From NCBI GenBank assembly GCA_043738945.1, contig JAYUFB010000080.1:49697-113696 (forward strand): DNA of 64,000 nt. Direction: 5' to 3'. The translations under genes and the position numbers were made by a program. This document shows positions 15,431 to 52,891 of this stretch, one piece after another. Numbering within the stretch: the stretch's first letter is position 1; each line of letters opens with the position of its first letter. This DNA is from Gammaproteobacteria bacterium. GTDB taxonomy: Bacteria > Pseudomonadota > Gammaproteobacteria > Steroidobacterales > Steroidobacteraceae. The notes under the pieces were generated by a model. The model saw nothing but the letters and a program-made list of their open reading frames with translations. It searched no databases and had not been told where the DNA came from.

Positions 15431-15446
15431 ATTCGAGCTACTCCTG

Positions 15447-26159: not shown

Positions 26160-26166
26160 TGCATCC

Positions 26167-28596: not shown

Positions 28597-28601
28597 GGGT
28601 C

Positions 28602-30379: not shown

Positions 30380-30427
30380 ATGAACTTATGCGGACAGCGG
30401 TGCTCGCATGCATCCCTAGGATAAGCC

Positions 30428-31864: not shown

Positions 31865-31928
31865 CGGCATGCCTAAGTGACGTTCCGCATGCTAATGTTG
31901 TCATTTATGCTAGACCCTTGGAAATCTA

Positions 31929-36382: not shown

Positions 36383-37495
36383 ATGGAATTATCCCTTCCC
36401 TCACGCGACTATCTCGACACTGAAGTATTCAAGCGCGAAGTTGCCTGTATTTTTTCGCGCGAATGGGTCGCTGTGTGCCGAGCAGAGGAAATTCCGGGCG
36501 CGGGCGACTGGCAGGTGGTCAATTTGGTGGGTGACAGCGTACTTATTGTGCGCGGTAAAGACGACCGGCTACGGGCCTTTTATAACGTCTGTCGTCATCG
36601 AGGCGCGCAGCTGTGCGCGCCTAAGAATGCAGCCCTAAAGCCGGGCCGGGCGGTATTACCCTCATCGGTGCTGGCCAACGGAAATATCCGCTGTCCTTAT
36701 CACGCCTGGACCTATGATGCTGAGGGCGCTCTCATTGGCGCGCCATTCCTTACCGATGACCCAGGGTTTAGGCGCGAAGATTTTTCCCTCTACCCCTTGA
36801 GATGTGAGATTTGGGGTGGTTTTGTATTCATACATGGCTCGCCCAAAGAAGCGAAGTCGCTCGCCAGCCAAATGACACAGGTGTTGGCGCGCATTGCCAA
36901 CTACCCATTGAAGGATATGCGTATCGGTCATCGCATGCGCTACGAGGTGGATGCTAATTGGAAAATTCTCTGCGAAAACTATAACGAGTGTTATCACTGC
37001 GGCCCGGTGCATCCAGAACTATGCCGTTTGGTGCCCGCCTTTCGCATGAAGGGCGGTGCCGACCTTGACTGGCAAGACGGGATTCCGCATCGCGAGGGAG
37101 CCTATACTTTCACCTGGAGCGGCACCACTCAACGTGCGCCATTCAAAGGCCTGAGCGAGGCGGAAAAAACCAAACACAAGGGTGAGCTGGTGTATCCGAA
37201 TTTATGGTTGAGCATGGCCTGCGACCACGTGACCGCTTACATCCTGCATCCTATTTCCGCCCATCGTACCGAAGTGGAATGTCTATTCTTGTTTGCCCAA
37301 GAAGAAATAGCGAAGTCCGATTTTGATCACACCGATGCCAGTACTTTTTGGGAGGTGACCAATCAACAAGATTGGGCCATTTGCGAGCGCGTTCAACAAG
37401 GCATTGCCTCCAGCCAGCATAAACAAGGGTACTACGCACCCATGGAAGATATGAATCTGGATATGCGGCGTTATATTCGCGAACGCATGAAGTGA
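36383..37495 (+). CDS. Rieske non-heme iron oxygenase, alpha subunit (GbcA/Stc2/choline-monooxygenase-like)
   Basis: Rieske ligands CRH..CPYH and a mononuclear iron region NYNECYHCGPVHPEL. GTGA overlap with the soxB-like gene. Confidence 0.88.
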   Translation: MELSLPSRDYLDTEVFKREVACIFSREWVAVCRAEEIPGAGDWQVVNLVGDSVLIVRGKDDRLRAFYNVCRHRGAQLCAPKNAALKPGRAVLPSSVLANGNIRCPYHAWTYDAEGALIGAPFLTDDPGFRREDFSLYPLRCEIWGGFVFIHGSPKEAKSLASQMTQVLARIANYPLKDMRIGHRMRYEVDANWKILCENYNECYHCGPVHPELCRLVPAFRMKGGADLDWQDGIPHREGAYTFTWSGTTQRAPFKGLSEAEKTKHKGELVYPNLWLSMACDHVTAYILHPISAHRTEVECLFLFAQEEIAKSDFDHTDASTFWEVTNQQDWAICERVQQGIASSQHKQGYYAPMEDMNLDMRRYIRERMK

Positions 37496-38766
37496 GGAGA
37501 TCCTCGCCTCATTATTCCGCGTGGTCACTAATTCGCGCGCGCATGAAGGGCGGCTATTGGCAACCTCTTTGGACCGGTCACAAACTGCAAGCAGCTTATG
37601 ACGTCGTCATCGTAGGAGCCGGTGGCCACGGTTTGGCGACCGCTTTTCACCTGGCACGCGATCACGGCATTAAGCGCATCGCTATTCTTGAGAAGCGCTT
37701 AGTGGGCTATGGCAACGTCGGGCGTAATACCACCATCGTGCGCTCTAATTATTTGTTACCTGAGAATCATTATTTTTACGAAGACTCGCTACGTCGCTGG
37801 GAAACGCTGTCGCACGATTTGAACTACAACGTGATGTACAGTCCGCGCGGCGTGGTTGATCTAGCACTCTCGGATGACGAAATGTCGGGTGCCGCACGTC
37901 GCGGCAACGCCATGCGCCTTGCCGGTATCGATGCCGAACTTCTCGATCGCGCAGCGTTAAAGCGCTTCTGTCCAGAGTTGGACACCGAGCGCGAGAGGCG
38001 ATTCCCTATTGTCGGTGCGTTGCTACAACGACGCGGCGGCACTGTACGCCATGATGCGGTGGCCTGGGGTTATGCACGCGCCGCGAGCGCACTCGGGGTC
38101 GATATTATCGAGGACTGCGAGGTCACCGGTGTACAGGCTGCGGCCGGGATAGCGAGCGGTGTCGACACCAGTCGCGGCTATGTTAAGGCCGAGCGCATCG
38201 TGTTTGCGACCGCCGGTCACACCGCCATGATCGGTACGATGCTCGGCGTACCCATGCCGATCGAGACGCATCTATTACAGGCTATGGTCACTGAGCCGAT
38301 TAAACCGTTGCTCAACACCGTGCTGGTGTATATGTATCCCGGTCACGGCGAAACTTATATCTGCCAATCCGATCGTGGCGGGTTAGTGATGGGCGGAATG
38401 CTCGATGGCTTTCCTTCCTACACCCGTGAAGGCCGATGGGATCGCATGGAAGACGTGGTGGAAGGCGCGGTCGAGTTACTCCCGCAAATCGCCGGCTGCA
38501 AAATTCTGCGCCATTGGGCGGGTACTAATGACATGACCATGGATGGTAGTCCCATCATGGATCGACTTCGCCATGACAATGTATTCGTCAATGCGGGTTG
38601 GTGCTACGGAGGATTCAAGGCCATCCCCGCCTCGGGTGCCGCGTTCGCCACGCTCGTCGCAACCGGTAGCGCACCGGATCTCATAAAAGCCTATCGCATG
38701 TCACGCTTTGCAACCGGCCACCTGCTCGACGAGCGTGGCGGCGGTCCTTTCCCGGTGCGCCTATGA
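37492..38766 (+). CDS. soxB: heterotetrameric sarcosine oxidase family, beta subunit (FAD)
   Basis: SoxB-type N-terminus (YSAWSLIR..W..LW) followed by YDVVIVGAGGHGLATAFHLA. The physiological substrate may not be sarcosine. Confidence 0.88.
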   Translation: MRRSSPHYSAWSLIRARMKGGYWQPLWTGHKLQAAYDVVIVGAGGHGLATAFHLARDHGIKRIAILEKRLVGYGNVGRNTTIVRSNYLLPENHYFYEDSLRRWETLSHDLNYNVMYSPRGVVDLALSDDEMSGAARRGNAMRLAGIDAELLDRAALKRFCPELDTERERRFPIVGALLQRRGGTVRHDAVAWGYARAASALGVDIIEDCEVTGVQAAAGIASGVDTSRGYVKAERIVFATAGHTAMIGTMLGVPMPIETHLLQAMVTEPIKPLLNTVLVYMYPGHGETYICQSDRGGLVMGGMLDGFPSYTREGRWDRMEDVVEGAVELLPQIAGCKILRHWAGTNDMTMDGSPIMDRLRHDNVFVNAGWCYGGFKAIPASGAAFATLVATGSAPDLIKAYRMSRFATGHLLDERGGGPFPVRL

Positions 38767-39020
38767 CGCTCGCAACACTACAGACCCGCTTAGTATGTCC
38801 TTTCTGCGGACCGAGACAATTGAGCGAATTCGTATTTCACAAGACTTTGCCCCCAGCGAATGCTTCCCGCTTCGCCAAGGTCTATGAGCGCATTGATACC
38901 CCGCACTTGAGTATCGAGCATTGGCAGCACGTCCGCGGCTGCCGTAGTTGGCTACGCGTGCACCGCAATCCATCGAGTGGCGCCGTTCTCGAAATAAATC
39001 TACTCAGCGCCGCCACATGA
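38763..39020 (+). CDS. soxD: sarcosine oxidase family, delta subunit
   Basis: 85 aa with LVCPFCGPRQLSEFVF and a later H..H..C zinc-site pattern. ATGA overlaps on both sides. Confidence 0.85.
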   Translation: MTLATLQTRLVCPFCGPRQLSEFVFHKTLPPANASRFAKVYERIDTPHLSIEHWQHVRGCRSWLRVHRNPSSGAVLEINLLSAAT

Positions 39021-41962
39021 GCGCTCGAGCAGGCACACGCGGCGTACGGATTGGAACACGAATCGCCAGCGAATCGATACGATTTAGTTTTGACGGCCAG
39101 GAGTACCTCGGCCAAGCCGGCGACACCGCCGCCTCCGCGTTACTCGCCAATGGTGTGCGCGCGATGGGCCGTAGTGTCAAGTACCGCAGGCTGCGCGGAC
39201 TACTCGCGGCAGGGCCCGAAGAGCCCAACGCGCTTTTGACCGTGGGCAATTTTCCTAATGTCATTCCCAATGTATCCGCGCCCCAATTGGTCTTGCGGAA
39301 CGGTATGATTTTACGTAGTCAGAATCGCTGGCCGAGTTTGAAGTTCGATGTAGCATCTTTGTTGCAAGCGGGCGGCGGCTTATTGGGTGCGGGCTTTTAC
39401 TACAAAACATTTATGTGGCCCTCTTGGAAAACCTACGAAAGACTAATCCGCAATCTAGCCGGTCTCGGTGAAGCACCAGGTGCGTGTACGCTGCCTCCTC
39501 CCAAAATAATGTATGCCAGTTGCGATGTGCTGATAGCAGGTGCCGGCCCTGCGGGACTTGCTGCTGCACTGGCTGCCGCCCGCAACGGCGCAAACGTGTG
39601 GCTGTTCGAGCGGGAACCTGCGGTAGGCGGCGAGCTGGAATTTGAAACGAGTGAAGTCGATGGCCTGCCAGCCCAGCAGTGGATTGCCGCAACACTCGCA
39701 GAACTAGCACAACGCGGCGCAAAGATATTCACCAACACGACCATCATGGGAGGCTCTAGCGATCTAATCATTGCACATCGAGAAGCGGGCGGAATTCCTG
39801 GGGACAACACGGTGTACCGCATAAACCCTCGCGCGATGGTGGCCGCTATGGGCGCGGTGGAACGACCCATTGCCTTTGCGGGTAATGATCGCCCCGGCGT
39901 CATGCTCATCAATGCCGCCGAGAAATACTTAGCTCGCTACGGCGTGAAAGTGGGCAGCGATCTGGTGCTATTTGCCAATCATGATCGTGTTTATGCCGCC
40001 GCCGCGCGCTTACAAGCCGGTGGCATGCGCATCCGCGCCATCATCGATACTCGCCGCACAGCCTCGGAAGCGATCCCCTTACGCGCCGATCTCATGCGTA
40101 GTGGAATCCATTGTTTACTGAATACGGCGGTTCTCGCTACGACAGGTCGCCAACGCATCACTGGGGTAAAAATCGCACCACTCGATGCGCCACACCAAGC
40201 ACGTATCCTACCCTGCGATACTGTTCTAGTTGGCGGCGGATGGTCGGCACCCACCCATCAATCGGCACAATCGCACTTCATCGCGGGTGCTGAACACGGC
40301 TGTCTCGAACTCAGCGCCGCCCTGAATGATGGGTATACGGCAGGCCGCACCGCCGCCGCCGTCGCCGGTAAAATGAACCTGCCCGGGGCTGCGCCTAGAG
40401 GCCACGGCGACATGACGCCCCAGCTCGTGCCCTTCTGGCGCTCACCCAGCGACCCCACTCGCGAAAAAAACCAATTCGTCGATTTGCAAAATGACGTCAC
40501 CGTAGCCGATCTGCGCGCCGCGCTTAGCGAAGGGTTTAACGACATTGAGCACGTGAAGCGTTACACCACCCTCGGTGTAGGTACCGAGCAAGGTCGCACC
40601 AGCGGCTTGCTGGGCGCAAGTATCGTGGCGGAATTGAAAGGCGAACTCCTCACACAGGTCGCCACAAGTCGCGCGCGTCCGCCTTATTATCCGATGACCT
40701 TAAGTTCGCTCGCGGGACTGCGCGTTGGCGCGGCGCTGCGACCGACCCGCAGGACAGCGCTGCATCAATGGCATGAATCGAACGGGGGTGTATTGGAGTC
40801 CACAGGCCTTTGGATGCGGCCTCGATACTATCGGGCGAATGGCCTGGACGCCTTCACCGCAGGGGTTGCGGAAGCTAAACGAGTGCGTAGCATCGGCGGC
40901 ATCATCGATAGCTCGACGCTGGGGAAAATCGAAGTGGTAGGCCCCAATGCGGCAGCCTTCCTCGATACGCTGTACCTCACCAAGGCTAGCACTATTAAAA
41001 TAGGCCGCAGTAAGTACATGGTGAATTTGCGCGAGGACGGCATGGTGTTGGACGACGGTATTGTGCTGCGTCTTGCAAGCAATCGATTCCTAGCTACGGT
41101 GAGCTCGGGACATGCCGAACATATGCTCTCGCACTTTGAGTACTACTGTGTTGAGGGGCACGATTCCGCGATTACGGGCGCTGCCGCGATTTCGCGGACC
41201 CGCGCGGTCTCAGTCACCGATGTGACGGAGAGTTGGTCGGTGATTGCAGTGGCTGGGGCCACCAGCCTAAGCGCTCTAGCCCAAGTCTTAGGCAACGAGT
41301 GGCAAACAAGCCTCGCGCAACTGTCGCATATGGATTTCGCACTAGGCGTATTCCAAGGTCGCGATATCAAGGTACTGCGCGCAAGCTTTTCGGGTGAGCT
41401 TGCATTCGAGTTGCATTGCCGCCCGGCCATTGCGCTCACGCTATGGGAAGGCCTGATTGCCGCCGGTCTTTCACCCTATGGGCTCGAAGCTCTCGATATT
41501 TTACGCGTGGAAAAAGGTTACTTGGTGAGTTCCGAGATCAACGGTCAAACCACTCCCTTTGATCTCGGCATGGACGGACTTGTTAAAATAGGCAATCACT
41601 GTGTGGGTCGCGAATTGCTCGATCGACCTGCGTTTCATGAAGCATCAAGGCCGCGCCTCGTGGGTCTTAAAGCAGTTGATGGTAAATCCAAATTTCTGGG
41701 CGGCGCGCAGCTACTCAGTACCTTATCGCCTCGTCCCTGCGGTCACGTGACTTCTACGGTTTATAGCCCGACCTTCAATGAATGGATCGGCTTAGGACTA
41801 GTCGCTCGAAATCTAGAGCTTGGCACCACCTTGATTGCCAAAGATCCACTGCGCAGCGGCAACACCCGAGTGCTATTGGTGCCCCCGGTGCACTTTGATC
41901 CGAGCGGTGCTCGGATGAAATCTGTGCAACAAACCCAAAGTAAATCCGCAGTACCGCCATGA
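39017..41962 (+). CDS. soxA: sarcosine oxidase family, alpha subunit (NAD/FMN and folate-binding GcvT-like domain)
   Basis: N-terminus FSFDGQEYLGQAGDTAASALLANGVRAMGRSVKYRRLRGLL..EEPNAL. Dinucleotide motif CDVLIAGAGPAGLAAAL. C-terminal aminomethyltransferase-like region. ATG 39017 overlaps the soxD stop. Confidence 0.9.
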   Translation: MSARAGTRGVRIGTRIASESIRFSFDGQEYLGQAGDTAASALLANGVRAMGRSVKYRRLRGLLAAGPEEPNALLTVGNFPNVIPNVSAPQLVLRNGMILRSQNRWPSLKFDVASLLQAGGGLLGAGFYYKTFMWPSWKTYERLIRNLAGLGEAPGACTLPPPKIMYASCDVLIAGAGPAGLAAALAAARNGANVWLFEREPAVGGELEFETSEVDGLPAQQWIAATLAELAQRGAKIFTNTTIMGGSSDLIIAHREAGGIPGDNTVYRINPRAMVAAMGAVERPIAFAGNDRPGVMLINAAEKYLARYGVKVGSDLVLFANHDRVYAAAARLQAGGMRIRAIIDTRRTASEAIPLRADLMRSGIHCLLNTAVLATTGRQRITGVKIAPLDAPHQARILPCDTVLVGGGWSAPTHQSAQSHFIAGAEHGCLELSAALNDGYTAGRTAAAVAGKMNLPGAAPRGHGDMTPQLVPFWRSPSDPTREKNQFVDLQNDVTVADLRAALSEGFNDIEHVKRYTTLGVGTEQGRTSGLLGASIVAELKGELLTQVATSRARPPYYPMTLSSLAGLRVGAALRPTRRTALHQWHESNGGVLESTGLWMRPRYYRANGLDAFTAGVAEAKRVRSIGGIIDSSTLGKIEVVGPNAAAFLDTLYLTKASTIKIGRSKYMVNLREDGMVLDDGIVLRLASNRFLATVSSGHAEHMLSHFEYYCVEGHDSAITGAAAISRTRAVSVTDVTESWSVIAVAGATSLSALAQVLGNEWQTSLAQLSHMDFALGVFQGRDIKVLRASFSGELAFELHCRPAIALTLWEGLIAAGLSPYGLEALDILRVEKGYLVSSEINGQTTPFDLGMDGLVKIGNHCVGRELLDRPAFHEASRPRLVGLKAVDGKSKFLGGAQLLSTLSPRPCGHVTSTVYSPTFNEWIGLGLVARNLELGTTLIAKDPLRSGNTRVLLVPPVHFDPSGARMKSVQQTQSKSAVPP

Positions 41963-42441
41963 GTCACGCGCTCTTCAATGATTTTTCCTGCCAATTGGAG
42001 GAAATGCCGTCTTCAAGGGATTATGAGTTCATTGCATTTGGCGAGGTAGCCGATGAAGGAGTGCCCGGTGAAAGCGGGCCAGGTGACTCGGCGTTGCTGC
42101 CCATCGCACCCGGCCGCTGGTTTGCGCCCTCTCCCGACGCCGCGGTGCAATCATTCCTTGAGGCTGCAATCCACGCAGATTCAGGCACCGTGATTGATAT
42201 CAGCGGCAAGTGGCACGCGATGACGCTCATCGGCAGCGGCGCGAGCCGCTTACTCGCCAGCAGCATCGACATCGAAGCCGTATTACACAACCGCTCCTGT
42301 GCCGCACTGGCGTTGTTCGACTGCCCCGCGATCGTCGCGCGCAAACCCACGGGATTTTCGATCTGGGTACACTCCAGCTACGCCGCTCATTTTGTGAGGG
42401 TCATTCAAGAGCTGGGGGCAAGTCTAATCGCGCGCAAATAG
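41959..42441 (+). CDS. soxG: sarcosine oxidase family, gamma subunit
   Basis: 160 aa in the fourth position of the soxBDAG order, with an ATGA overlap. The DISGKWHAMTLIGSGASRLL pattern is typical of SoxG. It is somewhat shorter than usual. Confidence 0.75.
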   Translation: MSHALFNDFSCQLEEMPSSRDYEFIAFGEVADEGVPGESGPGDSALLPIAPGRWFAPSPDAAVQSFLEAAIHADSGTVIDISGKWHAMTLIGSGASRLLASSIDIEAVLHNRSCAALALFDCPAIVARKPTGFSIWVHSSYAAHFVRVIQELGASLIARK

Positions 42442-42469: not shown

Positions 42470-42709
42470 CTAAAGCTTTAGATGCGTACCGTCGCACAAC
42501 GGTGCTTTGTGCGTGTGCTTGCATCCGCAAAAAAACACCGTGGTTGACTGCGACGCGGTATATTTCACCGGTGCGAATTCACTGCCCTTATGACTACCAT
42601 CACAAAACGGTTGTTTAGCGCTCTTGCCACAGGCGCACCAAAAGTAGATCTTACCCGCTTCAACCTCGACGGCGTAGGGACTCTTTTGGGCAATCGTCGG
42701 GCTTGTCAT
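42470..42709 (-). CDS. CDGSH iron-sulfur domain protein (two CDGSH motifs)
   Basis: CACGKSAKQPFCDGSH and CGCKHTHKAPLCDGTH. GGAGA Shine-Dalgarno sequence 7 nt before ATG 42709. Same strand as, and immediately downstream of, the GS-like gene. Confidence 0.88.
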   Translation of the reverse strand: MTSPTIAQKSPYAVEVEAGKIYFWCACGKSAKQPFCDGSHKGSEFAPVKYTASQSTTVFFCGCKHTHKAPLCDGTHLKL

Positions 42710-42760
42710 GTCAGCATCTCCGTGGCAAAGCATAGACCGTAGTTCGGACCCACTGCTGTG

Positions 42761-44044
42761 TCAAATATAATTAATGTAATAGTCTCTAAGGGCATCGCCT
42801 TGCAAGTTTTCGGTCTCTTTGATTTCCGCCCGCTTTATCGCCACATGGTTTGCCACCAAAGTGTCGCCCATGCATTTTACAAACACCTTGTCGGCTTCAA
42901 GCGCACTGAGCGCCGCACCGAGACTCTCAGGCACGCCCTCGGTGGCATCAGTTTGACTAAGACAATCGCCGGTCTCAGGTGGCGGGAGTTCATATTTTCC
43001 GGTGTGCCCCAACTTTGCCGCCTGCAGCACCGCCGCCACTAACACATAGGGATTGGACGCCGCATCGCCCATACGATGCTCAATACGCGCGCGGGTCCCA
43101 CCCTGTGCCGATATGCGAGTGGTGACCCCGCGATGATCGACGGCCCAGTTGCGCCAATAGCCCGACATTGACCCCGGTTTTAATCGCTGATAGGAATTAA
43201 CGGTCGGAGCCACCAGTGCGCACATCCCTTGGTGATGCCGCATCAGGCCAGCCACCGAACTGCGCGCAACTGGCGAAAGATTCGAGCCGTGGCCATCCGC
43301 AATCACGTTATGACCCGACGAGTCATTAAACGAGAAATTCACATGCAAACCGCTTCCTCCTTTATTGAGAATGGGCTTCGGCATAAAAGTCAGCAGCAAA
43401 CCATGTTCAAACGCCACTTCACGAGCCATTAACCGGAACAGAAAAGCGTCATCCACCGCTTGCAGCGCATCGTCATAGACAAGCGTAAACTCTAATTGCG
43501 GAGCGTCGAACTCTGAGGTCATGCATTCCACTTTGAAGCCGCGCGATTCCGCCCGATGCCAAAGGTTGTCGGTGAATCGGCGCGGATCACAAGCGGGTCC
43601 GGTGCTGTACACATAAGCACCCGGCGTGTCATACGGCGCTAACTTGCCTGCTTCGTTGCGCTCAAATACATAGGCCTCAAGCTCTAAGCCAACCTTGGGG
43701 TTAAACCCTAACGCACGCCATTCGTTCACTGTGCGCTTAAGCAATTGACGCCCACACATCGGCAGAGGCGATCCATCGGTTTCATTAAGATCCGCGATCA
43801 CCACCGACGTGTCCATTTCCCACCCAGCGCGTACATCAGCCGCGGTAAACACCGCGTCCATGTCGGGCATTCCCTGTAACATCTTAGTACCGGGGGCCGG
43901 AATTAAATCCTTGCCGTAAGTCAGTGCATAGGTCGCCTGAGCAAATCGCGAGGCACCCCCACTTTTCTTGGAGGCGGGAAGGTATTTACCGCGCGCCAGA
44001 TTCAAATGATCACAAAATAATAATCTGAGTCGCTCATCAGCCAC
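42761..44044 (-). CDS. glutamine synthetase-like gamma-glutamyl-amine ligase (PuuA/GmaS/IpuC-like)
   Basis: 427 aa with a GS catalytic domain (KVGLELEAYVF, FDAPQLEFTL, MPKPILNKGGSGLHVNFS, NSYQRL, RIEHRMGDAASNPY). The N-terminal domain is short, as in amine-ligating GS paralogues. Confidence 0.85.
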   Translation of the reverse strand: MADERLRLLFCDHLNLARGKYLPASKKSGGASRFAQATYALTYGKDLIPAPGTKMLQGMPDMDAVFTAADVRAGWEMDTSVVIADLNETDGSPLPMCGRQLLKRTVNEWRALGFNPKVGLELEAYVFERNEAGKLAPYDTPGAYVYSTGPACDPRRFTDNLWHRAESRGFKVECMTSEFDAPQLEFTLVYDDALQAVDDAFLFRLMAREVAFEHGLLLTFMPKPILNKGGSGLHVNFSFNDSSGHNVIADGHGSNLSPVARSSVAGLMRHHQGMCALVAPTVNSYQRLKPGSMSGYWRNWAVDHRGVTTRISAQGGTRARIEHRMGDAASNPYVLVAAVLQAAKLGHTGKYELPPPETGDCLSQTDATEGVPESLGAALSALEADKVFVKCMGDTLVANHVAIKRAEIKETENLQGDALRDYYINYI

Positions 44045-44056
44045 TTAATTTCTCCC

Positions 44057-45319
44057 TTAACGCAACTTCACACGTACTGGCAATTTTTTAATACCACCCA
44101 CAAAATTAGAGCGCAAATAAGCATGGGCGCCGACCTGCTCGAGACTTACCACTCGTCTTACAAATTCCTGTAATAGCAAGCGCACTTCCAGTCGCGCCAA
44201 CCACATGCCTAGGCATACATGCGCTCCGCCCTGCCCGAATGCAACATGTCGATTAGGCGAACGCCCCGGATCGACTTCAAAAGGATTTTGAAAAGCCGCC
44301 TCATCGCGGTTAGCCGAGACAAACCACAGCAGTACCTTATCGCCTCTGTGAATAATTTTGCCGTGCATTTCGCCGTCGCGACTTGCCGTACGACGAAAAT
44401 ACATCGCGGGACTAGCCCAGCGAATAAATTCATCAGGCGCAGTGTTCCAGAGTTCGGAACCGCCCTCCTGCAATTGCTCTAGTAGTGCTGGGCGATTTGC
44501 CATCGCATGCAGGGCCGCCGAAATCGAATAGCGCGTAGTGTCGTTACCGGCTGCGACCAACAAACAAAAGAAGTTCCGGAACTCATGCTCAGGAATCACA
44601 TTGCCTTTGGCATCGGGTTGCAAAATGATACCGAGCACACCCGTATCGTCGCCGCTACGTCGTTTTTGTTCCATTAATGACTTCGCGTATTCATAAAGTT
44701 CGGCTCCTGCGGGCGAGCGAAACGGCATAAAACGGAAAGCCTCGGTATCGGTTTTGTCCAAGACATGAGCGGTGTACTCAGGATCGGTGTTGCTTATCAA
44801 CTCATCACCCTTGCGAACCAACCAATCAAGATCCGACTGCGGGGTACCAATAATTTGGCCTAACATACGCATGGGGAGTTGTCTTGCGATCTCGTGAACC
44901 GCATCAAACTCACTGCTAGCTAAGGCTTTATCTAAAATCTCATTGCATAGCTCGCGAATCTGGGCGTCGAATTGATCAATCACCGGACGAGTGAACGCCT
45001 TGCTGACGCGAATTCGCACATCGGTATGCTCAGGCGGATCGGTTTCCTGAAACGTACGTCGCGCCAAATATTCCTCATAGCTCTGGTCTTCCATGCGGAT
45101 GCCGCGCGCCGAGCTCATCCATTTATAGTCGCGCAATAGTTGCGATACATCGGCATGACGAGTCACCGACCAAAATCCAGTGCCCGCCGGATATTCACAC
45201 CAAGCCAGCGGATCTTCGCGCCTTAATCGCGAAAAAGTATTCTGTGGCGCTCCGTTGGTAAAGCTATCGTGACTGGAAAGGTCGGCGTGCCCATCGTCGG
45301 TCGGAACCCACACTGTCAT
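44057..45319 (-). CDS. cytochrome P450 monooxygenase (class I bacterial type)
   Basis: Heme-thiolate loop FGQGGAHVCLG, I-helix LLVAAGNDTT and an ExxR region. 12-nt gap to the GS-like gene. Confidence 0.92.
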   Translation of the reverse strand: MTVWVPTDDGHADLSSHDSFTNGAPQNTFSRLRREDPLAWCEYPAGTGFWSVTRHADVSQLLRDYKWMSSARGIRMEDQSYEEYLARRTFQETDPPEHTDVRIRVSKAFTRPVIDQFDAQIRELCNEILDKALASSEFDAVHEIARQLPMRMLGQIIGTPQSDLDWLVRKGDELISNTDPEYTAHVLDKTDTEAFRFMPFRSPAGAELYEYAKSLMEQKRRSGDDTGVLGIILQPDAKGNVIPEHEFRNFFCLLVAAGNDTTRYSISAALHAMANRPALLEQLQEGGSELWNTAPDEFIRWASPAMYFRRTASRDGEMHGKIIHRGDKVLLWFVSANRDEAAFQNPFEVDPGRSPNRHVAFGQGGAHVCLGMWLARLEVRLLLQEFVRRVVSLEQVGAHAYLRSNFVGGIKKLPVRVKLR

Positions 45320-45412
45320 GTTGACTTAACCCCCCTCTACCCAGAGCACGAATAACGCGCTTCAGAATATCATTGCATTGACAACGAAACAAACAGATCT
45401 AAGATAGTAAGT

Positions 45413-46114
45413 ATGAGCCACCGAATTGCCGTACTACTCACCAGTAATGACGAATCCGCTTTTGCCAAGCGCTTCCCTAACGACGGCGAAAAGGTAATTA
45501 CGCTGCTGCGCGCTCTGAGACCGGATTGGTCCTATCGAGTATGGTCAGTGAAGGACGGCGAATTCCCCTCAAGCACCGACGCAGACGGGTACATCATCAC
45601 AGGTAGCCCCGCCTCGGTACACGACCCGCTGGATTGGATAGCGCGCTTAACTGCCCTGATCTGCGAGCTGCATAGCCGACGGGCACCTTTAGTGGGGCTT
45701 TGCTTCGGTCATCAAGCCATTGCGCTAGCGCTCGGCGGTCGGGTTGAGAAAAGCCCCGGCGGTTGGCGTATGGGAATCGCTGCAACTCATTTTTCTAAAA
45801 AGTTACCCTGGATGGCACCCTACCACCCCACCCTCGAGCTATACGCATCGCATTCCGAGCAAGTCACTCAACTCCCGGCCACCGCTCAACGCCTCGGAGG
45901 CGATGACTTCTGCCCGATCGCTTCCTTCGTTTTAGACCAACACATCATGACTACGCAGTACCATCCAGAGTTCTCGCCCACCTTTATGTCGGAACTGACT
46001 GATGTACTAGTGCGGAAACTGCCCGCCGAAGTCATTGCACAAGCTCGCGAGGAACTAAAACGGGAAGCGCAAGGCGAAGTATTTGCCCAATGGATGGTGA
46101 AATTTTTGGAATGA
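45413..46114 (+). CDS. class-I glutamine amidotransferase-fold protein (candidate gamma-glutamyl-amide hydrolase)
   Basis: Nucleophile elbow GLCFGHQAIA and the His-Glu pair in QYHPE. It is a stand-alone 233-aa protein with no synthase domain. Divergent from the P450 operon with a 93-nt spacer. Confidence 0.8.
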   Translation: MSHRIAVLLTSNDESAFAKRFPNDGEKVITLLRALRPDWSYRVWSVKDGEFPSSTDADGYIITGSPASVHDPLDWIARLTALICELHSRRAPLVGLCFGHQAIALALGGRVEKSPGGWRMGIAATHFSKKLPWMAPYHPTLELYASHSEQVTQLPATAQRLGGDDFCPIASFVLDQHIMTTQYHPEFSPTFMSELTDVLVRKLPAEVIAQAREELKREAQGEVFAQWMVKFLE

Positions 46115-46136: not shown

Positions 46137-47093
46137 CTAATATTGCTGACGCTGGTAGTTAACCGCCTCGCGGAACACATGCGCATGAAGCTGTGCGGTG
46201 CGCACCCGCGATTCAGCATAACCACCCGCCAATACAATAACCAACGGAATCCCGCGAGCGCGCACCGCCTCAATCACAGCACGATCACGGCTACTTATTC
46301 CCTGCTCAGTCAGTTTAAGTTTACCGTAACGATCACCCGCCGCGACGTCGACCCCCGCGAGGTAAAACACAATCTCAGGTTGACTCTCAAGCACAGCTGG
46401 CAAATGGCCGTGCAGGCTATCAAGATATGCGGCATCGCCGACACCACTGGGCAATGCTATATCGAGGCAAGAGCGCATTTTACGGGCGGGATAGTTCTGC
46501 TCGCCGTGCATTGAGAAGCTTAATACCTGGCCCACCCCTTCGAAAATAGCCGCAGTGCCATTACCTTGGTGGACATCAAGATCGATAATGGCTGCGCGGT
46601 CAATGAGTCCTTCCGCACGCAATTGAGTGATGGCAATAGCAACATCGTTCAGCACACAAAAACCCTCGCCGTGGTCAGCAAAGGCATGATGAGTCCCGCC
46701 TGCCAAGTTAGCAGCAAGACCTAACTTTAACGCCGTGCGCGCTGCTAGCAAGGTACCCCCAGCCGCAAGACGCGAACGCAACCATAGAGACTCCGACCAC
46801 GGAAAGCCCAGCAGTCGTTGCTCAGCCAAAGAAAGCTGAGAAGACTCTAATTTATCAAGGTACTCAGGAGTATGCACCTGTTCCAAAATCCACCTTTCGA
46901 GCGGCTCAGGAACCATCAAATCACCAGGGTGCAACACGCCTTCCGTCAATAGGAGTTCCATGAGCAATGGATATTTACTCATGGGGAAAGGATGCTGCGG
47001 TGAAAGCCCCAGTTGATATCCCGGGTGATAGCAATAACGCAAGCCGTGGCCCAGACCACTATTTAGGCTGAAATTCAGAAAATTTACTCTCAT
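46137..47093 (-). CDS. histone deacetylase-family amidohydrolase (acetylpolyamine/acetoin-utilisation type)
   Basis: GGTHHAFADHGEGFCVLND, IIDLDVHQGNG and YLAGVD motifs of the arginase/deacetylase fold. Confidence 0.88.
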   Translation of the reverse strand: MRVNFLNFSLNSGLGHGLRYCYHPGYQLGLSPQHPFPMSKYPLLMELLLTEGVLHPGDLMVPEPLERWILEQVHTPEYLDKLESSQLSLAEQRLLGFPWSESLWLRSRLAAGGTLLAARTALKLGLAANLAGGTHHAFADHGEGFCVLNDVAIAITQLRAEGLIDRAAIIDLDVHQGNGTAAIFEGVGQVLSFSMHGEQNYPARKMRSCLDIALPSGVGDAAYLDSLHGHLPAVLESQPEIVFYLAGVDVAAGDRYGKLKLTEQGISSRDRAVIEAVRARGIPLVIVLAGGYAESRVRTAQLHAHVFREAVNYQRQQY

Positions 47094-47226: not shown

Positions 47227-47472
47227 ATGACAGTACAAGTTATCGTCACACCCAACGGCCGAATGATTCTGCCATCCGGCATCCGCAAGCGTCTTGGCCT
47301 GTCGGGTGGCGGAGCCTTGTTGGTCGAAGAGACGCCCCATGGCGTAGTTCTGCGAACAGTGGGTCAGTCGATCGCTCATGCCCAAGCCTTGGCGCGAAAA
47401 TACACGTCCGGCAAGGCGGGTACATCAGTTGATGCATTTCTAACGAACCGGGTCGTAGAGAGTGGCGAATGA
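47227..47472 (+). CDS. vapB: AbrB/MazE/SpoVT-family antitoxin (VapB)
   Basis: The looped-hinge-helix signature VIVTPNGRMILPSGIRKRLGLSGGGALLVEETPHGVVLR. ATGA overlap with the PIN toxin gene. Confidence 0.88.
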   Translation: MTVQVIVTPNGRMILPSGIRKRLGLSGGGALLVEETPHGVVLRTVGQSIAHAQALARKYTSGKAGTSVDAFLTNRVVESGE

Positions 47473-47858
47473 CCGAAGTCATTCTAGATGCTTCAGCACT
47501 CCTGGCCCTGCTAAAGAATGAACCCGGCGGTGCAAAAGTAGCAGAAGTCGTGATGTCGTCGCGCATGAGTGCGGTTAATTACGCCGAGGTAGTCAGCCAT
47601 TTCATTCACGCCGGAATGCCCGCCCCCGAGGTAGATGCAATGCTCGATCCTTTACCCATGACCTTGGTCGAAGCGGATGCAGATCTCGCGCGTATCGCCG
47701 GTCGATTACGTTTAATTACCTCAAATGCGGGTCTATCGCTGGGGGATCGGTTCTGCCTGGCCCTCGCCGCACGCGATGGACTTCCCGCCTGGACCGCCGA
47801 CAGAAAATGGCGGAGCGTGGCAGAAGCAGCAGGGGTAGTTGTCGTCGTCATCCGATAA
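47469..47858 (+). CDS. vapC: PIN-domain toxin, VapC family
   Basis: ILDASALLALL, NYAEVVS, GLSLGDRFCLALA and WTAD acidic-residue pattern of PIN domains. Confidence 0.88.
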   Translation: MTEVILDASALLALLKNEPGGAKVAEVVMSSRMSAVNYAEVVSHFIHAGMPAPEVDAMLDPLPMTLVEADADLARIAGRLRLITSNAGLSLGDRFCLALAARDGLPAWTADRKWRSVAEAAGVVVVVIR

Positions 47859-47948
47859 TCGAATGCTGACCAGCGGTGCCGTTCAACGTTTTGACTCAAA
47901 GCCGTCTAACGCGAGCGTCCGCTTTTTGGAGGCAGAGATCGGACGACC

Positions 47949-48497
47949 TTACGTACTGAGGCCGATGTAATACACCATGTTGTCCGCGGGCCGGACCAGA
48001 ATCAGATCGACCGCCGAAGGATCCGTACCGTAGTATTTAATGCTCCACAGATAAACGTAGTATGTTTGATTTCGGATATCAGCTGCAGGAGGAAACCAAG
48101 GAATATCACTTGAATTTCGCGCCGTCTCCGCGAACCCGACTGCGTCGTCAATGACCATGGGAAGCTGATCGCCGCGATGCCAACCGCCTCTCTTCGTCGA
48201 AGGCAATTCTGATGGCGAGACATGGGAAATCTTTATTGCATATGCGTCCAGATGATCACCGCCGAGCGATCGGGCAGTGACGTGACTGTGCATTACACTG
48301 ATGAAGCGCTTGTCACCAAGCGCGCACCAGTTCAACACAAACCGCACGTCTTTAAACGTAGCAGCACCGTTCGGCTGATCGGCATACGTCACGTGTTTGA
48401 AGGCAACGAATCCAATAATGGCCAGTACACCGATTAGCGATATCGCGCCCCAAGCGAGCAGGCTGCGTACCAGAAATATCCTTATCAATGCGCTCAT
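47949..48497 (-). CDS. membrane-anchored hypothetical protein
   Basis: N-terminal TM (LLAWGAISLIGVLAIIGFVAF) followed by a soluble domain of about 140 aa. No family recognised. Confidence 0.5.
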   Translation of the reverse strand: MSALIRIFLVRSLLAWGAISLIGVLAIIGFVAFKHVTYADQPNGAATFKDVRFVLNWCALGDKRFISVMHSHVTARSLGGDHLDAYAIKISHVSPSELPSTKRGGWHRGDQLPMVIDDAVGFAETARNSSDIPWFPPAADIRNQTYYVYLWSIKYYGTDPSAVDLILVRPADNMVYYIGLST

Positions 48498-48763: not shown

Positions 48764-49828
48764 CTACTCGCGCCGTGTTTGCAGCCCTTCCTCAACAATC
48801 GCCTTTTCCAGCATACTGCGAAAACTCGCTAAGGCCGTGTCCATCCGCATCGCCAACATGGGCGCATCCGGTTCAAGATCCAAAATTCTCTGTTGCGCCA
48901 AAATAATATCCTTATCTTCCATGAACCCAGCCAACACGCTCGTGGTTAAGTTCTCGGTAACCTTAGGGTCATCTAGTGCAAAACCATGCGATTGCTGAAA
49001 AAAGTAATGCGAAGTCTTCTCAGTCTCCGGCGTCACTGCCTGACAACCAAAAAACGACGCCGCATCGACACGATTGCCCTCGGGCGCACCGGTGCCCGTC
49101 GCCGCACTCCCCGAATCCATGAGTAGCACCCCCGGCAGTACCACATCATAAATATTCCACCGATCAACATTGCCAGGCCAAGTTTTCAAATTACGCAAAA
49201 AAGGTGCCGGTTCATCATCAATCAGCCAGCGCTCGACGCGCACACTCCGCCCTTTGCGCGTCACCTTGGGCCGAGTACCCGCATATTTAGCCGAGCCGCC
49301 TAAAGTTGTAGCGTGCACATAGGACAGGTGCGAGAAATCCAACAGATTATCAGTGATCAAAACGTAGTTAGCGTTGTAATGCAGGTACCCGGGCGTGCCG
49401 CGCCAACCGGGATCATCCAAATAATGAGTATCGGGAATGAGCGAAGCATCCGCCTTTTCAGGTTCACCCATCCAAATCCACACCCACTTGAATCGCTCAA
49501 CCACGGGAAAGGCTCGAACTTTAGCGGCCGGCGGAATAAATTCCTGTGAAGGAATCTCAACGCATTGGCCCAATGAGTTAAACAGCAACCCGTGATACAT
49601 ACAACGGATGCAATCACCCTCACGCCGCCCCTTGGAGAGCGGCGCCGCACGATGACAGCAACGATCCAATAACGCCACAACGTGGCCATCACGGTCGCGC
49701 CACAATATCAACGGCACGCGAGTAATAGTACGTGCCAGCATTCCCTCCGACTCGATCTCATGCGACCACGCCGCCACATACCAAGTATTTTTAAGAAATG
49801 TAGTACTAGAAGCGGTGGCGGTACTCAT
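48764..49828 (-). CDS. Rieske oxygenase, VanA/phthalate-family oxygenase component
   Basis: Rieske motif CCHRAAPLSKGRREGDCIRCMYHG with canonical spacing. Iron site region DNLLDFSHLSYVH. No reductase gene is nearby. Confidence 0.85.
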   Translation of the reverse strand: MSTATASSTTFLKNTWYVAAWSHEIESEGMLARTITRVPLILWRDRDGHVVALLDRCCHRAAPLSKGRREGDCIRCMYHGLLFNSLGQCVEIPSQEFIPPAAKVRAFPVVERFKWVWIWMGEPEKADASLIPDTHYLDDPGWRGTPGYLHYNANYVLITDNLLDFSHLSYVHATTLGGSAKYAGTRPKVTRKGRSVRVERWLIDDEPAPFLRNLKTWPGNVDRWNIYDVVLPGVLLMDSGSAATGTGAPEGNRVDAASFFGCQAVTPETEKTSHYFFQQSHGFALDDPKVTENLTTSVLAGFMEDKDIILAQQRILDLEPDAPMLAMRMDTALASFRSMLEKAIVEEGLQTRRE

Positions 49829-49860: not shown

Positions 49861-52083
49861 CTATTTTCCGCCCCAGCGATAATTAAAAGTCGCGCCATAG
49901 GTGCGTGGTGGACCGTAAACGCTCTGGTTCCATCCGATAACCGATAAATCTAAGTTATAAACTCGGTAGTATTTATTAGTAACATTCCTTACCCACGCGC
50001 TTACATCCCAATGACCTGCGTCATTGGTGTAAGTAAATCGCGCATTACTCAGTGCATACGAAGCCTGATAATCGACCTGAGAATTGAGAAGCTCTAAATA
50101 TTCGTGCGCGTTCCATTTAGCGTCCGCCTCGACCGCTAGTTGACCACTCGGCACCGGCCACTCATAGCGTGCCACCGCATTTAAGCTCCATTTTGGGGCC
50201 TGCGGAAGCTCTGTAGAGATCGTTCCGCCTAATGCCAGCGGAACATTTTTAGCAACGGTTTCTAGATGGGAAACACCTAACTGCAAATTCATTCCGCGCA
50301 TCGGTGCCACAGCGAATTCCAACTCACCACCTTTAACGGTTGCATCAATGTTCTGCACCACTTGGGTTAAGCCCGCCAGAAAGAAACCCTGGTAATTATG
50401 ATAATCGTAGTAAAATAAAGCACCGTTAAGGCGCGCGCGTCCGTCCCAAAAAGTGTATTTCTCGCCAAGCTCATAGCTAGTGAGTGTCTCTTGGTCATAC
50501 GGCAGGCTAGTGACCGAAACAGGGGGTGCAGCTCCCGGCGGCGGCGCATACTCCCCGACTCCCGCACTCGGGGCCGACCATCCGCCACCTTTCGCGCCAC
50601 GGTTGACGCTGACATAAAGCATAGAATCTGGGGCAAATTTGTAATCTAACTCAAGCTTACCCGTAACGTTGTTATAGGTATGATTTGCGGAAGGGTACAG
50701 TCCACGGTTGTAAGGATCATCAGGGCTAAAACCGGGATTCGTAAATAGATAATCGAAAGTCTTTTTGTCACTCGTATAGCGTGCGCCTGCGATACCCGTA
50801 AAGCTCGGTGCAAAATCATATTCTAGTTGGCCAAAAATCGATTGTGACTGGGTCGTCAGCGTAAAAGCAGCGTCCGATGGGCCACCAAATGCTGAGATGA
50901 TACTGACCTTTTCATCATTGCTGGTGTGATAGTCGAGAAAATACAAACCCGTGATCCACTTAAGCGCACCCACCGTACCGTTGAGGCGTAGTTCCTGCGC
51001 GAGTTGATGATAATGCTGCAGCGTGTCGTAATTAAAAATGGGCTGCGGAGATACATCTGAGTCCTCACCATAGCGTTTCTGAAGGTGCAGATAATCGGTA
51101 ACGGACGTAAAATTGAAAGCATCGAAATTCCAGTTCACATGCAAGGTTGCACCCAGCACCGTGCGATTAAATATACCGCGCCGGTCTTCAGCCTGAGTAA
51201 ATGGATCGGTGTTAGCACTAGAGTAACCCGTAAAGTCACCTAAATTCGGATCCGTAAACTTGCCTCTCGCTTGGCTATCCCAGGCGGACGGCGCCCACGA
51301 ATAATTACCCGCGGTTTCGTTATCATTCACTACACCGTGAATTTTCAGCAGGACTTCACCCTGTTCTGACGGTTTGTACAAAAACTGTACGCGGCCCGCG
51401 TATTGCTTTTCGTTGTTGATAGATGGCCCAATCAGGTTTTTAATATAGCCGTCATGATATGAAGTCGCGAAAGAAGCGCGTACCGCAAATCGGTCACTAA
51501 CTGCATGATTGAAAGCACCTTCGGTGTTTAAGGTACCGTAATTACCGCCGGTCACCGACACATACCCGTCATCATCGAATTTCGGTTTTTCGCTGATATA
51601 GTGAATCAAGCCACCGGTGGCGTTGCGCCCGAACAACGTGCCTTGCGGGCCGCGCAATATTTCTACCCGTTGAATATCGAACAGCGATCCCGCGAGTGCT
51701 CCCATGGAGGCGATATACGCATCATCCGCATACACCGCGATTGGGGCTTCTTGGTGATCGCTGAAATCGTTCTGCGACACACCGCGTAGGTTATACACCG
51801 TGACGGTAGCGCCGTATTGATTGAACTGCATACCGGGGGTTTGGTTTGAAATAGCGGTCACGTCGCTAAGCCCTAGCTTCCTCAACGAGGCGCCATCAAA
51901 CGCGGTAATTGAGGTACCCACCGTCTGCAAATTCTGCTCACGCTTTTGTGCGGTGACCACAATTTCATCGAGCGTACCCGCTCCGCTCGGCATGCTGGTT
52001 GCGGTCGGTGCATCAGCGGCGATAGCCACTCCGGAATTGATCGCGGCGAGAACCAGCACAAGCAGTTTTTGTTTATTAATCAC
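49861..52083 (-). CDS. TonB-dependent receptor
   Basis: Signal peptide, TonB-box region DEIVVTAQKRE, plug motif ILRGPQGTLFGRNATGG, and a long beta-barrel with a terminal aromatic-rich strand. Confidence 0.92.
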   Translation of the reverse strand: MINKQKLLVLVLAAINSGVAIAADAPTATSMPSGAGTLDEIVVTAQKREQNLQTVGTSITAFDGASLRKLGLSDVTAISNQTPGMQFNQYGATVTVYNLRGVSQNDFSDHQEAPIAVYADDAYIASMGALAGSLFDIQRVEILRGPQGTLFGRNATGGLIHYISEKPKFDDDGYVSVTGGNYGTLNTEGAFNHAVSDRFAVRASFATSYHDGYIKNLIGPSINNEKQYAGRVQFLYKPSEQGEVLLKIHGVVNDNETAGNYSWAPSAWDSQARGKFTDPNLGDFTGYSSANTDPFTQAEDRRGIFNRTVLGATLHVNWNFDAFNFTSVTDYLHLQKRYGEDSDVSPQPIFNYDTLQHYHQLAQELRLNGTVGALKWITGLYFLDYHTSNDEKVSIISAFGGPSDAAFTLTTQSQSIFGQLEYDFAPSFTGIAGARYTSDKKTFDYLFTNPGFSPDDPYNRGLYPSANHTYNNVTGKLELDYKFAPDSMLYVSVNRGAKGGGWSAPSAGVGEYAPPPGAAPPVSVTSLPYDQETLTSYELGEKYTFWDGRARLNGALFYYDYHNYQGFFLAGLTQVVQNIDATVKGGELEFAVAPMRGMNLQLGVSHLETVAKNVPLALGGTISTELPQAPKWSLNAVARYEWPVPSGQLAVEADAKWNAHEYLELLNSQVDYQASYALSNARFTYTNDAGHWDVSAWVRNVTNKYYRVYNLDLSVIGWNQSVYGPPRTYGATFNYRWGGK

Positions 52084-52168: not shown

Positions 52169-52298
52169 ATCAGGCTACCTGTGGTTTAGGCACCACGGAT
52201 TCAGACTGTTACCCCACGCCATTAACCGAAGCGGCGCGACAAGCATCGACGTGGTAATCTTTTTGTCTCTGCAAAAAGGGATAAAGGGAATTATAGAA

Positions 52299-52796: not shown

Positions 52797-52891
52797 ACCA
52801 CCGCGAGCGGCGCGGCGGCTGCGGTGCGTTGCTCCCCGACATTCCAATCGTTGACAATGAAACAATCAGGCTGCATGATTTTAACTACCCT

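Follow-up and report, generated by a model that had tools for sequence, protein, structure and literature searches.

The P450-GS-GATase1 Locus

The window considered here (the whole stretch of DNA analyzed, 64,000 nucleotides of contig JAYUFB010000080.1, from an uncultured gammaproteobacterium of the Steroidobacteraceae, assembly GCA_043738945.1) carries a compact set of genes built around a cytochrome P450, a paralogue of glutamine synthetase (GS), and a stand-alone class I glutamine amidotransferase-fold (GATase1) protein. The P450 gene (44057-45319, minus strand) is the first of its operon and encodes a protein of 420 aa that matches PF00067 (4.6e-19) and contains FGQGGAHVCLG and AAGNDTT. 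Next on the same strand is the gene for the GS paralogue (42761-44044; 427 aa, GTG start; Gln-synt_C, 1.6e-75), and after it comes the gene for a CDGSH protein (42470-42709, minus strand; 79 aa, ATG start; zf-CDGSH, PF09360, 1.5e-17). The pattern C-x-C-x2-(S/T)-x3-P-x-C-D-G-(S/A/T)-H is found in this last protein twice, in the stretches CACGKSAKQPFCDGSH and CGCKHTHKAPLCDGTH.

The P450 stop codon lies 12 nt before the GTG of the GS gene, with GGGAGA inside the gap, and 51 nt, including GGAG, separate the GS stop from the ATG of the CDGSH gene (both read from the sequence). No terminator-like site was detected within the P450-GS-CDGSH run, and a hairpin is present between the CDGSH stop and the stop of the convergent soxG gene. 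The CDGSH gene probably shares a transcript with the two genes before it, those for the P450 and GS. The GATase1-fold protein (45413-46114, plus strand; 233 aa; PF00117, 3e-15; GLCFGHQ and QYHPE) is encoded divergently, its start lying 93 nt from that of the P450 gene. Within this intergenic region, shortly before the GATase1 start, is a sigma-70-like promoter match (45378-45405, plus strand; TTGACA-16-TAAGAT), a match to the consensus only, at 10/12 positions. The positions, motifs, and gaps reported for these genes in the preliminary description of this DNA were all confirmed by a map of the open reading frames (ORFs) together with Pfam. Contigs identical or nearly identical to the window come from stream metagenomes.

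Conservation of the P450-GS-GATase1 Unit

About 100 related loci from Alpha-, Beta-, and Gammaproteobacteria were compared. The sample consisted of 13 genome loci, 80 metagenome loci, several Pfam-labeled contigs, and annotated plasmid records, all of which encode proteins related to the GS paralogue (50-95% identity). Linkage was counted by tblastn in 96 non-redundant loci, with denominators restricted, where so stated, to loci having enough flanking sequence; neighboring ORFs were called with conservation weighting and the counts checked by tblastn.

In 72 of the 74 loci with room upstream, a P450 gene lies immediately 5' of the GS gene on the same strand, and its product is 54-94% identical to the window P450 (median, 66%). 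The P450-GS adjacency seen in the window is thus conserved in relatives. A Fer2 [2Fe-2S] ferredoxin of about 105 aa is encoded immediately 3' of the GS gene in 67/88 loci, and a GATase1 gene is present within 3.5 kb of it in 51/62, while a ferredoxin reductase is found anywhere in the locus in just 11/96. The carriers include Gammaproteobacteria metagenome-assembled genomes (MAGs), Rhizobium MAGs, Gellertiella hungarica, Pararhodobacter, Salaquimonas, Alexandriicola marinus, Hypericibacter adhaerens, Ruegeria sp. TM1040, and Novosphingobium sp. EMRT-2. The G. hungarica strain is DSM 29853, and the orthologous genes of Ruegeria sp. TM1040 are TM1040_RS04070 to RS04080, of which TM1040_RS04070 encodes the GS. 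In addition, a distant version resides on a Streptomyces canus plasmid, where the P450 and GS are 40% and 33% identical, respectively, to those of the window. Metagenome matches to the P450 at E <= 1e-50 number in the thousands, and the best 120 of these are all at least 68% identical to the window protein. In the literature searched, no paper on this P450-GS family was found, and no source annotation names it.

The conservation of gene order across these loci, together with that of the catalytic residues described below, indicates that the P450-GS-GATase1 trio is a genuine conserved functional unit. It most likely represents a large, conserved, and so far unnamed family of proteobacterial amine-catabolic modules that work like the isopropylamine (Ipu) pathway.

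The Proteins of the Unit

The GS paralogue scores below the cutoffs of the GlnA model TIGR00653 (177.9; cutoff, 429.15), the PuuA model NF045547 (203.7; cutoff, 650), and the type III/GmaS-like model TIGR03105 (200.5; cutoff, 469.6). In Pfam it matches Gln-synt_C alone, with no match to the Gln-synt_N domain, and solved GlnA chains align with it only from about residue 80 on. The solved GmaS (2e-35), GlnA3-like, NpaA1-like, and PA5508 chains match no better (1e-35 to 6e-27). Nevertheless, the residues of the metal, ATP, and glutamate sites (E121, E123, E178, E185, H234, R287, R305, R310, R320, E322, and R324) are invariant among 93 sequences. By its sequence, the protein falls in a separate clade of GS-like ligases, and the chance, raised in the preliminary description, that it would prove to be a bona fide GlnA is not borne out at this level. 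It is proposed to be an ATP-dependent glutamate-amine ligase that adds a gamma-glutamyl tag.

Cys369 of the P450, the acid-alcohol pair D260/T261, and the ExxR motif are kept in 69-74 of 74 orthologues. The nearest solved P450 is CYP125MRCA (3.5e-88), which is followed by CYP268A2 and CYP124, and CYP153 and P450terp are also among the near matches; no NCBIfam family reached its cutoff with the window protein. It is proposed that this P450 serves as the oxidase of the gamma-glutamyl amide. In the GATase1 protein, Cys97 is kept in 50/50 orthologues and both His184 and Glu186 in 47/50, and this protein is proposed to be the gamma-glutamyl-amide hydrolase that takes the tag off. Furthermore, GATase1 and a class III omega-aminotransferase occur together in 31/33 loci, as expected if untagging frees an amine for transamination.

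A Probable Tag, Oxidize, and Untag Mechanism

From the observed gene content, gene order, catalytic residues, and co-occurrence, we infer an order of reactions and, with it, a class of substrate and a site of oxidation. In the first step, the GS paralogue would ligate glutamate to a primary amine at the expense of ATP. The P450 would then oxidize the resulting gamma-glutamyl amide, receiving its electrons through a small iron-sulfur carrier and a reductase encoded elsewhere, after which the Cys-His-Glu hydrolase of the GATase1 fold would cut off the glutamyl group. The freed, oxidized amine would be transaminated by the class III aminotransferase, and the product of that step would be oxidized by the syntenic aldehyde dehydrogenase. 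We regard such a mechanism, built on a P450, as probable. The tag, oxidize, and untag scheme had been suggested from the window by analogy with the Ipu and Puu pathways, and the conserved gene order and catalytic residues now lend it strong support.

Accessory Genes and the Nature of the Substrate

The genes that recur beside the module encode aldehyde dehydrogenases, a class III aminotransferase, and an uptake protein, which is either a transporter of the tripartite tricarboxylate type or a permease for amino acids; the regulators that recur with the module are of the GntR, IclR, AraC, or MarR type (some accessory-cluster identities were assigned by eye). An aldehyde dehydrogenase, the most frequent accessory, is encoded within eight genes of GS in 39/92 loci, and Aminotran_3 is present in 33/100.

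The window belongs to the class of loci with both GATase1 and the aminotransferase. Its accessory genes lie on the plus strand and are syntenic in L018, a sister gamma lineage. A MarR-family regulator (52251-52796; MarR_2, 3.7e-10; 81% identical to its L018 counterpart) precedes an aldehyde dehydrogenase (52829-54325; Pfam), a HAD hydrolase (54322-55059; Pfam), a class III omega-aminotransferase (55075-56439; NF005683, 684 against a cutoff of 575), and an amino-acid permease (56440-57852; Pfam). The last four are 74-86% identical to their L018 counterparts, and a second aminotransferase and a class II aldolase come after the permease. The aldehyde dehydrogenase scores best as a succinate-semialdehyde dehydrogenase (438, under the cutoff). 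This operon, from aldehyde dehydrogenase to permease, is proposed to provide for uptake and for the later steps of the pathway. In alphaproteobacterial loci, too, the module is accompanied by MarR genes, and the MarR protein of the window is a candidate regulator of the locus.

Ring-cleavage markers are linked to the module in 22/100 loci, and they include two mutually exclusive classes. A VOC-type 3,4-dihydroxyphenylacetate 2,3-dioxygenase is found in seven loci, together with HpaH- and HpaI-like genes; GATase1 is present in 7/7 of these loci and the aminotransferase in 5/7. One of these dioxygenases exceeds the NCBIfam equivalog cutoff for HpaD (411 versus 321), HpaH (349 versus 351.5) and HpaI (343 versus 369) fall slightly under theirs, and for the genes that match HpaE and HpaG, no other family scores better. 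The other class, with a LigB-type dioxygenase, consists of 11 loci, among them those of Hypericibacter, Novosphingobium, and Streptomyces canus, and neither GATase1 (0/11) nor the aminotransferase (0/11) is present. Instead, these loci contain FAA-hydrolase and acetoacetate-decarboxylase-family genes, an aldehyde dehydrogenase, a ferredoxin, and a reductase.

The compact LigB set recurs from Alphaproteobacteria to Streptomyces (L016, L020, L021, L028, L049, L057, L092, L113, and L115), and the best match of its acetoacetate-decarboxylase-family protein is MppR. Between Hypericibacter and S. canus, the ring-cleavage genes are 53-77% identical, the P450 39%, and the GS 32%.

A group II pyridoxal phosphate-dependent decarboxylase is encoded in nine loci, of which 7/9 also have ring-cleavage genes, and genes for PaaABCD and a PaaI thioesterase are the immediate neighbors of the module in Ruegeria sp. 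TM1040. Because relatives carry genes for homoprotocatechuate ring cleavage, an amino-acid decarboxylase, an omega-aminotransferase, and an aldehyde dehydrogenase, the substrate has been tentatively assigned to the arylethylamines, perhaps resembling tyramine. We consider this assignment credible, if somewhat short of probable. With a substrate of the tyramine or dopamine type, the P450 reaction would be a 3-hydroxylation of the ring, and the end product would be homoprotocatechuate. The preliminary description had held that neither a regulator nor a substrate could be read from the window; synteny with L018 has since supplied the candidate MarR regulator, and the comparative context has supplied a plausible class of substrate.

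A number of observations weigh against this interpretation, some of them bearing on the aromatic substrate and others on the module as a whole. No ring-cleavage genes were found in the 64-kb window, and the aromatic assignment is therefore imported from relatives whose GS is 50-66% identical. The decarboxylase is not typed as one for tyrosine or aromatic amino acids; its best match is diaminobutyrate (DABA) decarboxylase, with a score of 162 where the cutoff is 900. Most of the solved P450s nearest to that of the window are sp3 C-H hydroxylases, so an aliphatic amine fits equally well or better. No homologue of Fer2 or of a ferredoxin reductase was found in the 64-kb window. The recurrent HAD and Tm-1-like genes have no role in any model considered here, and the public names of GS, CDGSH, and P450 homologues are all generic. 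Finally, the link between the module and the neighboring Sox genes (described below) is uncertain, being one of position, in two related gamma lineages.

In L033-L050 (freshwater metagenome) and in L112, the operon of the module also encodes a HAD hydrolase and the Tm-1-like ATP-binding protein (UPF0261), the latter passing NF002676.

Given that most of the nearest solved P450s hydroxylate sp3 carbons (terminal or other sp3 hydroxylases: CYP125, CYP124, CYP153, and P450terp), an aliphatic amine is a serious rival to the arylethylamine, even if we judge it unlikely. With the architecture unchanged, an Ipu-like route would serve an alkylamine that is short or branched, such as ethyl-, propyl-, butyl-, or isoamylamine. 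Hydroxylation by the P450 would fall on a terminal methyl group of the gamma-glutamyl alkylamide, and once this had been oxidized and untagged, an amino acid such as beta-alanine or gamma-aminobutyric acid would be transaminated. Consistent with such a route, the Ipu precedent is itself aliphatic, the aminotransferase of the window is of the omega type, and the aldehyde dehydrogenase gives its best, subcutoff score as a succinate-semialdehyde dehydrogenase. In addition, most loci with GATase1 and the aminotransferase, the window included, have no ring-cleavage genes within reach, and a gene cluster (c25) provisionally read as malonyl-CoA-decarboxylase-like is present in a few freshwater loci. 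However, the frequency of homoprotocatechuate or LigB ring-cleavage genes, which occur in several lineages including Streptomyces, is far above that expected from chance placement. The MarR and paa neighbors also suggest aromatic substrates, and no alcohol dehydrogenase recurs with the module.

The CDGSH Gene and the Redox Partners of the P450

The ferredoxin and reductase that are encoded within an Ipu-type cluster are not encoded in the window. In the position of the ferredoxin lies the gene for the CDGSH protein, which does not have the Fer2 fold and which matches 3TBN (8.8e-32) and CISD3 6AVJ (2e-19). This placement raises the idea that the P450 receives its electrons from the CDGSH protein as a dedicated carrier, a non-orthologous replacement of the Fer2 ferredoxin. 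The gene sits on the same strand 51 nt past GS, the exact slot that Fer2 occupies in 67/88 loci; a GGAG of its own precedes it, and nothing resembling a terminator was seen ahead of it. The arrangement is kept in three related MAGs, and neither a Fer2 nor a ferredoxin reductase homologue was found in the 64-kb window. Furthermore, the family as a rule links the carrier to the module but not the reductase, which is present in only 11/96 loci.

Other findings argue against such a role. A CDGSH gene occupies this position only in the window clade (L001-L004, whose GS proteins are at least 92% identical), and a search for the motif in the other approximately 100 loci found none outside that clade. 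Consequently, the CDGSH gene, which the preliminary description had counted as part of the module, cannot be kept among its conserved members. Both Fer2 and CDGSH are missing from the sister gamma lineage, L018, and 21/88 loci have no linked carrier at all. The 79-aa CDGSH family is huge and highly conserved, and the three homologues examined (about 72-80% identical) are solitary genes in unrelated contexts: between Pirin and RIO1, beside an acyl-CoA dehydrogenase, and beside minCDE. In the window clade, the CDGSH gene arrived together with the Sox operon. A P450 surface adapted to a CDGSH partner was considered and rejected; in the CDGSH clade the P450 differs at 2/171 conserved positions, both differences are common to the CDGSH-less sister, and no change at these positions is specific to the clade. 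The CDGSH clusters characterized so far have potentials well above those of P450 ferredoxins, which also counts against a CDGSH donor, as does the failure of a literature search to find any paper that links CDGSH proteins to P450s.

Taken together, the evidence against a redox role for the CDGSH protein is stronger than the evidence for it, and we consider its service as the P450 donor quite unlikely. Since close homologues elsewhere are solitary genes, this is likely the ordinary CDGSH copy of the genome. Most likely, then, an ordinary CDGSH gene is co-transcribed here, and it is probably not a conserved component of the pathway. Bacterial CDGSH proteins are not known to have an established physiological role. 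If the CDGSH protein did prove to be the donor, it would provide the first defined biochemical function for these bacterial proteins as well as a new class of P450 redox partner. Its position in the window offers a cheap test of a possible function of an enigmatic protein family.

The Possible Fate of the Glutamyl Tag

Because the LigB loci have neither GATase1 nor the aminotransferase, the tag in these loci must either leave by other means or stay on. Under the tag, oxidize, and untag mechanism, it would probably stay on through ring cleavage, or else leave by another route. Retention of the tag through ring cleavage, which these loci suggest, would protect the amine against condensation with the aldehyde formed by ring fission.

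The same 11 loci (including Hypericibacter and S. canus), with their GS, P450, ferredoxin, and reductase, can also be accommodated by an oxidative N-dealkylation, a distinctly improbable alternative in our judgment. In this model, the P450 hydroxylates the carbon beside the amide nitrogen, the carbinolamide gives an aldehyde and glutamine, and GATase1 acts as a glutaminase to restore glutamate. The commonest accessory, as noted above, is an aldehyde dehydrogenase (39/92 loci, within eight genes), and GATase1 enzymes are glutaminases by ancestry, both of which are compatible with this model. However, the amine nitrogen would already be gone as glutamine, and the omega-aminotransferase, which accompanies GATase1 in 31/33 loci, would be needless. 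In addition, the Ipu precedent keeps the C-N bond.

Neighboring Regions of the Window

Convergent with the P450 operon, on the plus strand, is a run of genes for a Rieske non-heme-iron oxygenase (36383-37495; Rieske and Ring_hydroxyl_A; a distant relative of GbcA, at 188 against a cutoff of 670), SoxB (37492-38766; TIGR01373, 541 against a cutoff of 529), SoxD (38763-39020; family match), SoxA (about 39017-41962; family match), and SoxG (41959-42441; family match). The stop of the Rieske gene overlaps the soxB start, an arrangement of translational coupling. SoxBDAG is predicted to be a heterotetrameric N-demethylase of the sarcosine-oxidase family, and the whole run suggests a two-step N-demethylation operon for an N-methylated compound. 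The Rieske-Sox set is syntenic in L003 and L004, and in L018 a DAO-FAO_M-GCV_T demethylase-like gene is found there instead. A Rieske gene in L057 was dropped as independent support for the Rieske-Sox link; it is 25% identical to that of the window.

The adjacency of GS to this operon, together with the membership of N-methylglutamate dehydrogenase in the sarcosine-oxidase family, could be taken to indicate an N-methylglutamate-type methylamine pathway (GmaS, MgsABC, and MgdABCD), in which GS would be GmaS, SoxBDAG would be the dehydrogenase, and the P450 and GATase1 would be bystanders, but this highly improbable reading was rejected: GS scores 200 against the type III cutoff of 470 and matches solved GmaS at only 2e-35, no GltB-like synthase ORF turned up among the annotated ORFs of the window, and GS is tied to the P450 in 72/74 loci and to Sox only in the window clade.

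On the other side of the module, a protein of the histone deacetylase (HDAC)/acetylpolyamine-amidohydrolase family is encoded at 46137-47093 (minus strand; PF00850, Hist_deacetyl, 1.2e-57). Its gene also adjoins the module in L004 and L096 and is missing from L018; the protein is a possible N-deacetylase feeding the module. Farther on are a VanA-type Rieske oxygenase (48764-49828, minus strand; Rieske and VanA_C; 82% identical) and a TonB-dependent receptor (49861-52083, minus strand; Plug and TonB barrel; 69% identical), both syntenic in L018. One may speculate, from position only, that the HDAC-like amidohydrolase, the VanA-type oxygenase, and Rieske-SoxBDAG form a funnel in which compounds lose their N-acetyl, O-methyl, and N-methyl groups to give the primary amine.

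Between the HDAC and VanA genes are a VapBC-type pair (47227-47858, plus strand; a MazE-like antitoxin and a PIN-domain toxin) and a 182-aa ORF without a family (47949-48497). This stretch, 47227-48497, looks inserted, because it is absent from the syntenic L018.

A second GS-like gene (Gln-synt_C, 4.9e-51) is found at the start of the window, in the 36-3674 region, where it is cut by the edge. Genes for an N-formylglutamate amidohydrolase and an isochorismatase-family hydrolase come after it, with a formamidase/acetamidase gene opposite, and the region may represent another amide or amine pathway. At 9470-12358 (minus strand), a 962-aa Ser/Thr kinase with TPR repeats is encoded beside a 486-aa ORF without a family, in the part of the window with the highest GC content (about 0.60). 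An extracytoplasmic function (ECF) sigma factor, a FecR-like anti-sigma factor, and an apparently split TonB-dependent receptor are encoded at 13918-17682 (plus strand); the receptor consists of a Plug ORF (15447-16268) and a 466-aa ORF with no Pfam match (16282-17682), and it could be the result of a frameshift, a pseudogene, or a divergent barrel. The region from 21372 to 32000 is devoted to sulfur assimilation, with an ABC ATPase that has a TOBE domain, permeases, LysR, 3'-phosphoadenosine 5'-phosphosulfate (PAPS) reductase, and sirohaem synthase. Its transporter stretch, 22000-26000, has an unusually strong strand bias (GC skew, about -0.17; AT skew, +0.15 to +0.20).

Significance

The protection of amines by gamma-glutamylation during their catabolism is already known for polyamines, isopropylamine, and arylamines. 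The loci compared here indicate that a single P450-GS pair is the defining feature of a large family, whose members occur in Proteobacteria of freshwater, the sea, and soil. This family comes in two forms, one with the hydrolase and the aminotransferase, in which untagging would take place, and one with neither, in which a LigB-type ring-cleavage set is present instead. If the substrates are indeed of the tyramine or dopamine type, the module would constitute an unrecognized and widespread route of biogenic-amine turnover, parallel to the amine-oxidase route of Pseudomonas. Some of the carriers can be grown in culture, among them Ruegeria sp. TM1040, Gellertiella hungarica, and Hypericibacter adhaerens, so that the question is accessible to direct experiment.

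Comparison with Known Systems

The two-domain CDGSH proteins 3TBN (Magnetospirillum) and CISD3/MiNT resemble the CDGSH protein of the window in sequence and in having two CDGSH [2Fe-2S] motifs. Elsewhere, genes for such proteins were solitary in the three contexts mentioned above, whereas the window gene follows a P450-GS pair.

A P450 set beside a GS gene is also a feature of the actinobacterial N-heterocycle clusters (Mycobacterium pipA and morABC; Gulosibacter molinativorax), which are likened to the window here by their description. In G. molinativorax, genes for a P450, a ferredoxin, a reductase, and a glutamine synthetase are consecutive (GMOLON4_435-438 and 3049-3052) (PMC9477822). In these clusters, however, GS has been read as serving nitrogen assimilation (PMC9477822), and the P450s are of other families.

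In the systems for aniline, chloroaniline, and 1-naphthylamine, the products enter ring cleavage. A GATase-like protein (AtdA2/TdnT) accompanies the aniline-type systems. The oxygenase of these systems is a two-component Rieske dioxygenase that strips the nitrogen from the arylamine, while that of the window is a P450. As in the mechanism proposed here, a GS-like protein (AtdA1/TdnQ/NpaA1) glutamylates the aromatic amine ahead of oxygenase attack (PMC11335346). Unlike the arylamine systems, the window family has decarboxylase and aminotransferase neighbors, which suggest amines linked through an alkyl chain.

The Puu/Pau pathway (PuuA, PuuB, PuuC, PuuD, and PuuE) is a gamma-glutamylation route for putrescine and other polyamines (PMC10606097). 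It has in common with the window a GS-like ligase and an oxidation that acts on the amine after tagging, as well as an aldehyde dehydrogenase, a glutamate-removing hydrolase, and an aminotransferase of class III. Its oxidant, however, is the flavin oxidase PuuB rather than a P450, and the GS of the window scores just 204 on the PuuA model, for which the cutoff is 650. PuuD belongs to the Peptidase_C26 family, which was not among the matches of the window hydrolase; that protein matched PF00117 only.

The Ipu systems (Pseudomonas sp. KIE171; pTC1 and pTC2 of Paenarthrobacter aurescens TC1) have, like the window, a GS-like ligase, a P450 that acts on a gamma-glutamyl amide, and an amidotransferase-fold hydrolase, and the logic of tag, oxidize, and untag is common to both. 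In P. aurescens TC1, gamma-glutamyl-isopropylamide is the product of IpuC, and a multicomponent P450 system converts it to gamma-glutamyl-L-alaninol, from which L-alaninol is postulated to be set free by an enzyme of the amidotransferase type (PMC6776027). The annotation of pTC1 (CP000475) lists, in a row, a short-chain dehydrogenase/reductase (SDR), GATase, P450, ferredoxin, ferredoxin reductase, and ipuC. Consequently, the composition of the window, for which the preliminary description knew of no characterized counterpart, does have a precedent, in that the TC1 cluster already combines GATase, P450, ferredoxin, reductase, and ipuC.

Despite this shared logic, identity is only 31% between the GS of the window and IpuC, and 29% between the window P450 and that of pTC1, which puts the window P450 in a different CYP family. 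The GATase1 protein gives a weak match, and to the second pTC1 copy only. The gene order also differs, and the Ipu cluster has a ferredoxin and a reductase where the window has neither, but a CDGSH gene instead. In addition, the neighbors of the window family point to aromatic substrates, whereas the Ipu substrate is an isopropyl compound. With identities of only 29-31%, the window proteins are best described as analogues, not orthologues, of the Ipu proteins. By membership, the module of the window is none of the Ipu, Puu/Pau, and arylamine systems, and by its predicted mode of working, the closest of them is the Ipu pathway.

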